DNA from: Escherichia coli
GTDB taxonomy: Bacteria; Pseudomonadota; Gammaproteobacteria; Enterobacterales; Enterobacteriaceae
DNA length: 2,230 bases
Reading direction: 5' to 3' (one strand)
Assembly: GCF_003334815.1 (NCBI RefSeq)
Contig: NZ_QOWO01000088.1
In this document: positions 109 to 2,230 of the stretch, in pieces
How positions within the stretch are numbered: the first letter of the stretch is position 1
How the letters are laid out: every line of letters starts with the position of its first letter
Notes under the pieces: generated by a model
Seen by the model: only the letters and a program-made list of their open reading frames with translations
What the model was told of the DNA's origin: nothing
Database searches by the model: none
Translations under genes and position numbers: made by a program

Positions 109-312
109 ATGTTTGGTAACTTAGGACAGGCAAAAAAATATCTCGGCCAGGCGGCGAAGATGTTGATTGGCATTCCAGACTACGACAACTACGTCGAGCA
201 TATGAAGACCAACCATCCCGACAAGCCGTACATGAGCTATGAAGAATTCTTCCGCGAACGCCAGAACGCACGCTACGGCGGCGATGGTAAAGGCGGTATG
301 CGCTGTTGTTAA
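109..312 (+). CDS. yjiX: Small DUF466-family protein (YjiX/YbdD-like, 67 aa), the type usually encoded next to a CstA/BtsT-family transporter gene
   Basis: ATG at 109 to TAA at 310..312, 67 aa. The translation ([67 protein letters not shown]) matches the short YjiX/YbdD family as I recall it, and it sits immediately upstream of yjiA as in E. coli. The Shine-Dalgarno sequence is weak (GAGTGA). Confidence 0.85.
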
Positions 313-322
313 TGGAGAGAGC

Positions 323-1279
323 ATGAACCCGATTGCAGTTACCCTACTCACCGGTTTTTTAGGCGCGGGCAAAACCACCCTGCTGCGCCATATTCTTAAC
401 GAACAACACGGCTACAAGATTGCCGTGATTGAAAACGAATTCGGCGAAGTCTCCGTTGATGATCAACTGATTGGCGACCGCGCCACGCAGATCAAAACGC
501 TGACCAACGGCTGCATCTGCTGTTCGCGCTCCAACGAGCTGGAAGACGCACTACTCGACCTGCTGGATAATCTCGACAAGGGCAATATTCAGTTCGACCG
601 TCTGGTCATTGAATGCACCGGCATGGCCGATCCCGGCCCGATTATTCAGACCTTTTTCTCCCATGAGATTTTATGCCAGCGCTACCTGCTGGACGGCGTG
701 ATTGCGCTGGTGGATGCGGTACATGCCGATGAGCAGATGAACCAGTTCACCATCGCCCAGTCCCAGGTTGGCTACGCCGACCGTATTCTGCTGACGAAAA
801 CCGACGTCGCAGGCGAAGCAGAGAAACTGCGTGAACGCCTGGCGCGCATCAACGCCCGCGCACCGGTCTACACCGTTACCCACGGCGATATCGACCTGGG
901 CCTTCTGTTCAACACCAACGGTTTTATGCTGGAAGAAAACGTCGTCAGCACCAAACCGCGTTTCCACTTTATCACGGACAAACAAAACGATATTTCGTCG
1001 ATTGTGGTGGAACTGGATTACCCGGTAGATATCAGCGAAGTTTCCCGGGTGATGGAAAACCTGCTGCTGGAGTCGGCGGATAAACTACTGCGTTACAAAG
1101 GGATGCTATGGATTGACGGCGAACCTAACCGCCTGCTATTCCAGGGCGTCCAACGCCTCTACAGCGCCGACTGGGACCGCCCGTGGGGCGATGAAAAACC
1201 GCATAGCACGATGGTGTTTATCGGGATTCAGTTGCCGGAGGAAGAGATTCGGGCAGCGTTTGCGGGGTTGAGGAAGTAA
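323..1279 (+). CDS. yjiA: COG0523/CobW-family P-loop GTPase (G3E-type putative metal chaperone), 318 aa
   Basis: ATG at 323 preceded by GGAGA (314..318); stop TAA at 1277..1279. Walker A motif GFLGAGKTT at residues 11-19 (nt 353..379). The family-defining CxCC metal-binding motif GCICC is at residues 63-67 (nt 509..523). Length and N-terminus (MNPIAVTLLTGFLGAGKTTLLRHIL...) fit E. coli YjiA. The ORF-track start at 239 is an upstream in-frame ATG inside yjiX and is rejected in favour of 323. Confidence 0.95.
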   Translation: MNPIAVTLLTGFLGAGKTTLLRHILNEQHGYKIAVIENEFGEVSVDDQLIGDRATQIKTLTNGCICCSRSNELEDALLDLLDNLDKGNIQFDRLVIECTGMADPGPIIQTFFSHEILCQRYLLDGVIALVDAVHADEQMNQFTIAQSQVGYADRILLTKTDVAGEAEKLRERLARINARAPVYTVTHGDIDLGLLFNTNGFMLEENVVSTKPRFHFITDKQNDISSIVVELDYPVDISEVSRVMENLLLESADKLLRYKGMLWIDGEPNRLLFQGVQRLYSADWDRPWGDEKPHSTMVFIGIQLPEEEIRAAFAGLRK

Positions 1280-1290
1280 TTTTGGATGAT

Positions 1291-1321
1291 GGCCGCCATG
1301 TGGCGGCCTGAATTATTTTTT
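1291..1321 (+). terminator. Putative intrinsic terminator after yjiA: stem GGCCGCC/GGCGGCC with ATGT loop (1291..1308), then a T6 tract (1316..1321)
   Basis: Perfect 7-bp GC-rich inverted repeat seen directly, 12 nt after the yjiA stop. The T-tract is separated from the stem by 7 nt (TGAATTA), which is suboptimal. It lies in the 33-bp gap between the convergent yjiA and brnA genes. Confidence 0.45.
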
Positions 1322-1615
1322 GTTCTGATCGCGCAGCATCGCTTCACGTAAAATTGCGTTCAGGCGAGTTTGATAGCCTTTACCTGGTCGCTTCAACCAT
1401 TCCATCACATCAGCATCAATACGCACCGAAGCCTGAGTTTTCAATGGCCGATAAAACTTACCGCGTTCGGCGTTAGACCATTGCTCATCGCTGGAAGGTG
1501 GGATATCACTGTAATCAATATCTTCGTCGGATTTATTCGCCAGCGCCTTCAGTTCGGCCTCATGCTGCACATCGAGTGTAGAGGAGGTCCCTCGTTTATG
1601 TTTAACCATGCTCAT
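1313..1615 (-). CDS. brnA: BrnA-family antitoxin (DUF4415, ribbon-helix-helix-type DNA-binding C-terminus), 100 aa
   Basis: ATG at 1615..1613 preceded by a strong Shine-Dalgarno sequence (AAGAGAGGA, 6 nt upstream on the minus strand); stop TAA at 1315..1313. The translation (MSMVKHKRGTSSTLDVQHEAELKALANKSDEDIDYSDIPPSSDEQWSNAERGKFYRPLKTQASVRIDADVMEWLKRPGKGYQTRLNAILREAMLRDQNKK) has the acidic D/E-rich middle and the GKGYQTR-N-LRE C-terminal signature I associate with BrnA. The 29-aa N-terminal extension in the ORF track (start 1702) is out-of-frame read-through across the brnT 3' end and is rejected. Confidence 0.8.
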   Translation of the reverse strand: MSMVKHKRGTSSTLDVQHEAELKALANKSDEDIDYSDIPPSSDEQWSNAERGKFYRPLKTQASVRIDADVMEWLKRPGKGYQTRLNAILREAMLRDQNKK

Positions 1616-1878
1616 AGCGATTCCTCTCTTTACGATCTGCTTTTCGTGCACTGATGATTCGAATAATTTCATTTCCGCTTTCGAAACGGATGGTATGCGC
1701 AACCAGAATAACCACGATGCCGTAATGTCTGCCAGCGATACTCACCGTTTTCTATGCGTTCTTGCTGTGACAAATGTTGTGGATCATCAAACAATAACAC
1801 CGCATCTTCAAAGCGGATGCCATGTTTCACCCGATTACTTTTGGCCTTGTTTTCATCCCATTCAAACTCCATTGGCAT
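1602..1878 (-). pseudogene. brnT: BrnT-family toxin (DUF497, RelE-like fold ribonuclease toxin) disrupted by an apparent +1 frameshift near 1722
   Basis: The N-terminal half (MPMEFEWDENKAKSNRVKHGIRFEDAVLLFDDPQHLSQQERIENGEYRWQTL) reads in the frame of the 1669..1905 ORF. The conserved C-terminal half (GIVVILVAHTIRFESGNEIIRIISARKADRKERNRYEHG, stop TAA at 1604..1602) is in a different frame that has no start codon. Removing one base around 1722 (minus-strand ACATTA-C-GGCATC) would join them into one 91-aa ORF of typical BrnT size. The reconstructed 3' end overlaps the brnA start by 14 nt, the usual toxin-first brnTA layout. The start is ambiguous: ATG at 1878 (preferred, with GGGATGG 5 nt upstream), 1887 or 1872. 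Confidence 0.6.
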
Positions 1879-1893
1879 AATTGCCATCCCTAA

Positions 1894-1905
1894 TTGTATA
1901 TACAA
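1894..1905. promoter_or_regulatory. Perfect 12-bp palindrome TTGTATATACAA just upstream of the brnT start; candidate operator for the BrnA/BrnTA repressor
   Basis: Exact self-complementarity seen directly in the sequence. It lies 16 nt upstream of the preferred brnT start codon in the AT-rich leader. Ribbon-helix-helix antitoxins typically autoregulate through palindromic operators. Function is inferred, not shown. Confidence 0.3.
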
Positions 1906-1960
1906 AAATGTATCTACAATTATTCTGCAATTATAGCGTTGATGTTGGAAATAGCATCAC
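1906..1960 (-). promoter_or_regulatory. Candidate brnTA promoter region: consensus -10 TATAAT on the minus strand (1935..1930) with a poor -35; direct repeat CAATTAT at 1917..1923 and 1928..1934
   Basis: Hexamer and repeats read directly. The -35 match is weak (ATGCTA at 16-bp spacing). An alternative pair, TTGTAG/TACAAT, overlaps the palindrome at 15-bp spacing. Promoter assignment is tentative. Confidence 0.2.
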
Positions 1961-2061: not shown

Positions 2062-2084
2062 GGTAATGACTCCAACTTACTGAT
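2062..2084. repeat. IS1 terminal inverted repeat (GGTAATGACTCCAACTTACTGAT)
   Basis: Matches the recalled canonical IS1 right inverted repeat (GGTAATGACTCCAACTTATTGAT) with one substitution (T to C at 2080). This marks the IS/chromosome junction at 2061/2062. Confidence 0.85.
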
Positions 2085-2230
2085 AGTGTTTTATGTTCAG
2101 ATAATGCCCGATGACCTTGTCATGCAGCTCCACCGATTTTGAGAACGACAGTGACTTCCGTCCCAGCCTTGCCAGATGTTGTCTCAGATTCAGATTATGT
2201 CGCTCAATGCGCTGAGTGTAACGCTTGCTG
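2077..2230 (-). CDS. insB: IS1 transposase InsB, C-terminal 50 codons (partial; 5' end lies beyond the window)
   Basis: Minus-strand translation in from the window edge gives ...[50 protein letters not shown], with stop TAA at 2079..2077 inside the terminal repeat, as in IS1. It is absent from the ORF track because it has no in-window start codon. Confidence 0.85.

Follow-up and report, generated by a model that had tools for sequence, protein, structure and literature searches.

A chromosomal BrnT/BrnA toxin-antitoxin operon at the yjiA edge of the Escherichia coli Immigration Control Region, very likely with its toxin inactivated by an 11-bp deletion

BrnT/BrnA is a toxin-antitoxin family whose founding member was described in Brucella abortus (Heaton et al., 2012; toxin structure 3U97). 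In Brucella the BrnT-BrnA complex represses its own promoter, and both this autoregulation and the ribbon-helix-helix (RHH) domain of BrnA are treated as known in review. The ribonuclease (RNase) activity of Brucella BrnT needs Asp6, Glu7, Lys9, Arg41 and Glu78 (review of Heaton et al., 2012). The fold has been reviewed as two short helices packed on a four-stranded antiparallel sheet; BrnT is RelE-like in secondary topology, and a published table gives the gene order of the BrnT family as toxin-first (T/A). A related toxin-antitoxin complex from Salmonella enterica serovar Typhimurium has been crystallised (7VD7), for which our literature search found no paper on its function; an exact-sequence look-up of its toxin with a Met added gave no record. 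In Escherichia coli, brnAT is listed as a toxin-antitoxin system of the Immigration Control Region (ICR) (EcoSal Plus 2025 review, PMC12707154). Here we describe the brnTA locus in a 2,230-nt stretch of E. coli chromosome (the window; assembly GCF_003334815.1, contig NZ_QOWO01000088.1), in which the antitoxin gene is intact and the toxin gene is not.

The window locus has the same Pfam families and the same toxin-first operon as Brucella BrnT/BrnA, but Brucella BrnT is a distant relative (phmmer E 1.6e-4, gapped) and the window copy lacks everything past residue 51. The toxin of 7VD7 is 84% identical over 94 residues, although this complex comes from another species and its antitoxin chain was crystallised without the DNA-binding C-terminus. 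BrnT/BrnA pairs on plasmids (Acinetobacter, Moraxella, Klebsiella, Xenorhabdus, Salmonella, Xylella, Iodobacter) have the same gene order, with an overlap of 14 nt (or 20-29 nt), and share with E. coli a TGTATATACA-type palindrome and an invariant BrnA C-terminal segment. These pairs are intact and sit on small plasmids, where a role in stabilisation is plausible, whereas the window copy is chromosomal and toxin-dead. The chromosomal brnTA of other E. coli strains (WP_001297643.1, WP_000063156.1) has the same locus, the same place past the yjiA stop, the same BrnA protein, the same DNA apart from 11 bp and the same junction with the insertion sequence IS1; the difference is that the window holds a rare allele in which brnT is a pseudogene.

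We believe it very likely that the window carries a chromosomal type II BrnT/BrnA operon at the yjiA edge of the ICR, the toxin of which is dead by an 11-bp deletion. The features that bear most directly on this reading are the following.

1602 to 1878, minus strand: brnT pseudogene (alignment to the intact allele; PGAP 'frameshifted').
1669 to 1671, minus strand: premature stop of the frameshifted brnT frame (open reading frame (ORF) 1669-1905; alignment).
1313 to 1615, minus strand: brnA, intact (translation, Pfam, PGAP).
1623 to 1626, minus strand: GAGG, Shine-Dalgarno-like (read from the sequence).

The 5' part of brnT lies in the mechanical ORF 1669-1905, which begins with a TTG at 1905; the start annotated by PGAP is the ATG at 1878. 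This part carries FEWDENKAKSNRVKHGIRFEDA. The toxin frame opens MPMEFEWDENKAKSNRVKHGIRFEDA... before passing into a foreign frame that stops at 1671-1669. The 3' part of the gene is in another frame (1602-1745), where the toxin remainder ...GIVVILVAHTIRFESGNEIIRIISARKADRKERNRYEHG and its stop codon continue down to 1602. Alignment to the intact allele of strain 300709, which encodes 95 aa, revealed that the window lacks 11 bp (ATCGGCCTGGT, coding strand) between 1726 and 1725. Over 311 nt of the window (322 alignment columns), the two alleles are otherwise identical. The frame is kept through codons 1-51 (1878-1726), and the codons for Y56-G95 and the stop (1724-1602) are out of frame; the shift after Thr51 gives a 69-aa product of 51 native and 18 foreign residues. 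Inspection of the alignment showed no microhomology longer than 1 nt at the ends of the deletion, the mechanism of which is unexplained.

The same 60-nt junction is present in 24 independent genomes, and thus the deletion is no assembly artefact. A probe of this length across the junction matched perfectly in exactly 24 complete genomes, and the other carriers align with an 11-nt gap. The deletion allele accounts for 24 of the 2113 genomes that carry the cassette. The 24 genomes come from humans, pigs, cattle, a dog, frogs and water, and PGAP labels their brnT 'BrnT family toxin, frameshifted'.

The deletion removes much of what the toxin would need. In the AlphaFold (AF2) model of intact BrnT (pLDDT 88), helices 9-19 and 23-31 are followed by four strands and a C-terminal helix. 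The deletion cuts the predicted strand 46-55 and leads to the loss of strands 58-68 and 74-83 and of the C-terminal helix 86-94, and of the sheet the frameshifted product retains strand one and roughly half of strand two only. An alignment of homologues places the invariant His65 and the near-invariant Glu88 in the lost part. The Brucella residues D6, E7, K9, R41 and E78 align to D8, E9, K11, R48 and E88 of intact E. coli BrnT; all five are present in the intact allele, whereas E88, the equivalent of Brucella Glu78, is gone from the window allele by frameshift. It is very unlikely that the 69-aa product can fold or cut RNA. As the frame after Thr51 and Glu88 are both lost, we conclude that the toxin is dead and that the cassette has no addiction or stress function. 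Thus, the brnT of the window belongs to the BrnT family by descent, but it is a pseudogene. A preliminary description of this DNA had raised the idea of an active or addictive module, which does not apply to the window copy because its toxin is truncated. It had also foreseen that brnT would need repair; the lesion proved to be the 11-bp deletion, not a single-base slip.

The family of both proteins is well defined. Intact BrnT matched the Pfam family BrnT_toxin (PF04365, formerly DUF497) at E 4.7e-24 over the whole model (1-77 of 77), and residues 37-93 of BrnA matched BrnA_antitoxin (PF14384) at E 3.1e-17, again over the whole model (1-68 of 68). In these Pfam scans BrnT was the only significant match of the toxin, with no RelE, ParE or HigB even at E <=10, and no family besides BrnA was found for the antitoxin. 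The PHROGs matches were 'ribonuclease toxin of AT system' (6.4e-23) and an antitoxin family (1e-10). A search of PDB sequences with the toxin returned 7VD7_A (E 4e-52) and Brucella BrnT 3U97 (E 1.6e-4) and nothing else, and BrnA residues 14-57 matched the toxin-binding antitoxin chain 7VD7_B (E 1.4e-16). The AF2 model of intact BrnT superposes on 7VD7_A at TM 0.90 and agrees with the fold described for BrnT. A 681-nt query over the cassette was 100% identical in 18 complete RefSeq E. coli chromosomes; in 100%-identical chromosomes PGAP names the two genes "BrnA antitoxin family protein" and "BrnT family toxin".

These results bear out the assignment to BrnT and BrnA that the preliminary description had made, and the E-values of the profile matches are well outside what chance would give. 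The two minus-strand ORFs and their BrnT and BrnA signatures are present in the translations. When the hidden Markov model search was run, PF04365 and PF14384 were both matched at full length; neither a lack of matches nor a different RelE/RHH family was seen, and PGAP uses the same names on 100%-identical RefSeq loci. The described layout, toxin upstream with a 14-nt overlap, was exact in its coordinates: both genes are on the minus strand, and the brnA ATG (1615-1613) and the reconstructed toxin stop (1604-1602) bound an overlap of 14 nt. The intact E. coli allele has an overlap of the same length, as do four of the seven plasmid homologues introduced below. The span that had been given for the cassette, 1313-1905, is right at its start; its other end, 1905, is the TTG of the mechanical ORF, and the annotated start is at 1878.

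The antitoxin gene brnA is uninterrupted, from its ATG (1615-1613) to its stop (1315-1313), and encodes 100 aa. The translation includes GKGYQTRLNAILRE, and its C-terminal end reads ...GKGYQTRLNAILREAMLRDQNKK. PGAP identifies it as WP_000063156.1, the same protein as in toxin-proficient strains. By analogy with the Brucella protein, the C-terminal part of BrnA (about residues 60-95), with GKGYQTRLNAILREAML, would be the RHH DNA-binding part; this assignment follows the review. The C-terminal segment GKGYQTR(L/M)N.ILR.AML is invariant in eight homologues, whereas the toxin-binding N-terminal half varies, and overall identity to the plasmid antitoxins is 47-64%. The GAGG at 1623-1626 is 7 nt 5' of the brnA ATG, within the 3' end of brnT, and it is plausible that this site would let brnA be translated without coupling to brnT.

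Upstream of brnT, two further features may be relevant to the control of the operon.

1891 to 1922, no strand assigned: candidate BrnA operator (inverted repeat I2).
1930 to 1935, minus strand: TATAAT hexamer (read from the sequence).

The first of these contains a perfect palindrome, TTGTATATACAA, at 1894-1905 and a second, imperfect copy, TGTAGATACA (minus strand), at 1909-1918. Together the two copies form an inverted repeat with 14-nt arms that lies 13-44 nt 5' of the brnT ATG. The pattern TGTANATACA occurs three times in the window against an expectation of 0.01. For comparison we used seven plasmid brnTA loci, from K. aerogenes, Xenorhabdus, Salmonella, Xylella, Moraxella, Iodobacter and A. 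baumannii, whose toxins are 58-72% identical to that of E. coli. The 10-mer TGTATATACA was found with at most one mismatch in six of the seven loci, and the Iodobacter copy has two mismatches. None of the six 1.7-kb loci contained another match at <=1 mismatch. The plasmid copies lie at L005 667-676, L006 664-673, L007 661-670, L008 658-667, L009 659-668, L010 480-489 and L011 675-684. In E. coli and all seven plasmid loci (8/8 loci, eight genera), the palindrome is positioned 22-42 nt 5' of the start annotated for brnT. Because this conserved palindrome is paired with a conserved BrnA DNA-binding segment, we propose that it is the operator of BrnA, a proposal that we hold to be somewhat better than even. 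A search of open-access literature text for TGTATATACA found no paper tying it to BrnA. The TATAAT at 1930-1935 is a perfect hexamer, 52-57 nt 5' of the brnT ATG, and has no good -35; on weak evidence, it is possibly the -10 element of a brnTA promoter.

Based on these observations and on the related systems, we have proposed a model for the module. A promoter in the 183-nt region 5' of brnT would give rise to a bicistronic mRNA, and in the intact form translation of brnA may be coupled to that of brnT through the 14-nt overlap. BrnT would act as a small RelE-like ribonuclease and thereby stop protein synthesis. The N-terminal half of BrnA would neutralise BrnT in the way seen in the Salmonella complex 7VD7, and the C-terminal RHH domain of BrnA may repress the operon, likely at the TTGTATATACAA palindromes. 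In the window allele, the toxin is dead, whereas brnA, with its own Shine-Dalgarno site, probably continues to be expressed, now as an orphan autorepressor. We regard the module as being at an early stage of decay.

A number of observations weigh against this reading or parts of it. No NCBIfam family was matched by BrnA, by intact BrnT or by the frameshift product, and the PADLOC defence models matched neither BrnT nor BrnA. Glu9, the equivalent of Brucella Glu7, is not conserved among homologues. Our literature search found no experiment on E. coli BrnT/BrnA; what we say of toxicity, RNase activity and neutralisation is carried over from Brucella and the Salmonella structure. A scan with the consensus sigma-70 promoter found no minus-strand promoter upstream of brnT, and the TATAAT at 1930-1935 was not called because its -35 is weak. 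Instead of being the BrnA operator, the palindrome might serve as a promoter element or bind another protein. Finally, translational coupling has been lost because the premature brnT stop lies 53 nt before the brnA ATG, and BrnA output might drop as a result, which makes its continued expression uncertain.

The rival explanation that survives best is that the orphan BrnA has a use of its own and is retained for it, either as an anti-addiction factor against incoming plasmid BrnT or as a transcription factor with other targets. We think this unlikely. The gene is certainly intact, identical to WP_000063156.1 of toxin-proficient strains and equipped with its own GAGG site. Moreover, BrnT/BrnA pairs are common on enterobacterial and Acinetobacter plasmids, and plasmid and E. 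coli pairs share a conserved putative operator and a conserved DNA-binding segment. However, outside the 11 deleted bases, the 681-nt region is identical to that of intact-allele strains such as 300709, which points to a very young allele, and because the allele is so young the intactness of brnA is uninformative on selection. In addition, brnA has already been hit by a nonsense mutation in at least one of the 24 carriers: in QDFD216, C1525A (L012 3246) changes Glu31 to a stop (E31*), and PGAP then calls a 68-aa BrnA. Two other genomes, H23 and H24, are at 99.7% identity. The nonsense codon fits relaxed selection on the antitoxin after loss of the toxin. Cross-neutralisation is also doubtful, given that the toxin-binding N-terminal half is the less conserved one and that BrnA is only 47-64% identical to the plasmid antitoxins. 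We found nothing specific in favour of a selected orphan antitoxin. A more elaborate form of the idea is that the toxin-dead allele is kept as an orphan BrnA which acts on the family-wide TTGTATATACAA operator and represses or neutralises incoming plasmid brnTA in trans; to this form, too, we give a small chance. If true, the palindrome and the invariant BrnA C-terminus would constitute a shared, cross-talking regulatory code of the BrnTA subfamily.

It is far less probable that the module is still active, either because the frameshift is an assembly error or because it is bypassed by +1 ribosomal frameshifting. Indels are a common class of error in long-read assemblies, and the downstream brnT frame is open to its normal stop. 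However, the 24 complete genomes with the identical junction come from different hosts, countries and sequencing projects, and the loss of 11 bp outside a homopolymer would be an atypical sequencing error. The junction reads ACA-TTA-CGG, which contains no known +1 slippery or stall motif, and a bypass product would still lack Ile52-Val55 in the middle of a β-strand. Programmed +1 frameshifting was rejected on these two grounds, the lack of a known signal and the four-residue gap that would remain.

That the pair belongs instead to another RelE/RHH-type family (RelBE, ParDE or HigBA) and resembles BrnTA in short motifs only is barely conceivable: BrnT has a RelE-like topology and BrnA an RHH domain like many antitoxins, but Pfam gave only BrnA and, as the one significant match, BrnT, with whole-model coverage, the PDB sequences gave only 7VD7 and Brucella BrnT, and the gene order is the toxin-first one tabulated for the BrnT family.

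Our preferred reading, a BrnT/BrnA operon with a dead toxin, also includes its place in the E. coli chromosome. The cassette is present in 2113 of 5426 complete E. coli genomes (39%), once per genome and on the chromosome in 2112. It is missing from K-12, in which mrr comes after yjiA, and the similarity between the window and K-12 stops exactly at the yjiA stop codon. Past yjiA, K-12 has a REP-like hairpin and then mrr; in the corresponding interval (1280-1312) the window has a different GC hairpin, at 1291-1308. In carriers free of IS1, brnT is divergent from a restriction endonuclease gene, which is followed by hsdM, hsdS and hsdR. The cassette is the first unit of one version of the ICR, a defence island bounded by yjiA and yjiN. 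BrnT homologues were also seen on 766 plasmid records, 563 of them from Acinetobacter, mostly small plasmids at about 58% identity. Among the E. coli records labelled 'plasmid', four have 95-100% identity and measure 22 kb, 655 kb (two) and 834 kb; the very large ones may be mislabelled chromosomal pieces.

The IS1 element (from 2062) is inserted 13 nt before the start codon of the restriction endonuclease gene, and this junction is common to 1113 genomes. About half of the carriers have no IS1. Genomes other than the 1113 read through position 2061 into the restriction endonuclease gene and hsdMSR. IS1 is a later insertion into the intergenic region upstream of brnT, not the vehicle of the cassette. 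The regions on the IS1 side that we compared were these.

L001 6798-8949, IS1-bearing.
L002 6809-7658, IS1-bearing.
L012/L013 3798-4820, IS1-bearing.
L004 7195-14181.

Beyond IS1, strains 300709, HS30-1 and QDFD216 have mdtM-yjiN, and SCU-172 has a DUF2686 fragment, a second IS1 (IS1A) and iraD. The restriction genes are gone in IS1-bearing genomes and the flanks differ, which suggests repeated IS1-mediated deletions of the ICR. The preliminary description had called the cassette accessory cargo next to an insertion sequence. Its accessory nature stands (39% of genomes, no copy in K-12, the variable yjiA-yjiN ICR), but IS1 as its carrier does not. The comparison with E. coli loci downstream of yjiA, which had been suggested as a check, placed the cassette at the variable edge of the ICR.

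By the ORF list and PGAP, the window contains the 3' end of btsT, yjiX, yjiA, the two small minus-strand genes and the end of IS1. The features around the cassette are the following.

109 to 312, plus strand: yjiX (ORF list/PGAP).
323 to 1279, plus strand: yjiA (GTPase), conserved anchor gene of the ICR (ORF list; PGAP on the 100%-identical locus L001 5044-6000).
1291 to 1308, plus strand: GC-rich hairpin GGCCGCCA-TG-TGGCGGCC followed by a T-run (terminator scan; inverted repeat I7).
2062 to 2230, minus strand: IS1 left end, with the terminal inverted repeat GGTAATGACTCC... and the first part of the transposase region (annotated by PGAP as IS1 family transposase in L001/L002).

The cassette is convergent on yjiA and lies directly past its 3' end, as had been described, with a gap of 33 nt. 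The hairpin at 1291-1308 stands between the convergent genes and, judged from its sequence, looks like an intrinsic-terminator-like site for yjiA; its T-run overlaps the last brnA codons on the opposite strand. The antisense plus-strand ORFs 1370-1654 and 1608-1880 were set aside as mechanical by-products of the coding strand, with nothing in their support. An Rfam scan of the window at E <=1 returned a single sub-threshold match, the drz-agam-1 ribozyme at 1884-1959 (minus strand; 21.5 bits against a gathering score of 37, E 0.29), which we judged to be a chance match in an AT-rich palindromic region.

In sum, the cassette, its family, its location in the ICR and the frameshift are already recorded in RefSeq and/or the 2025 review, and for these our results have little import beyond correct annotation. 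The family-wide palindrome is the only element that we did not find described in our search of open-access literature, and it is possibly new. The window shows, in a clean natural case, how toxin-antitoxin decay begins: the toxin goes first, and the antitoxin follows in one sub-lineage. The conserved palindrome, in turn, provides a concrete operator candidate for a BrnTA subfamily that is widespread on plasmids and chromosomes.

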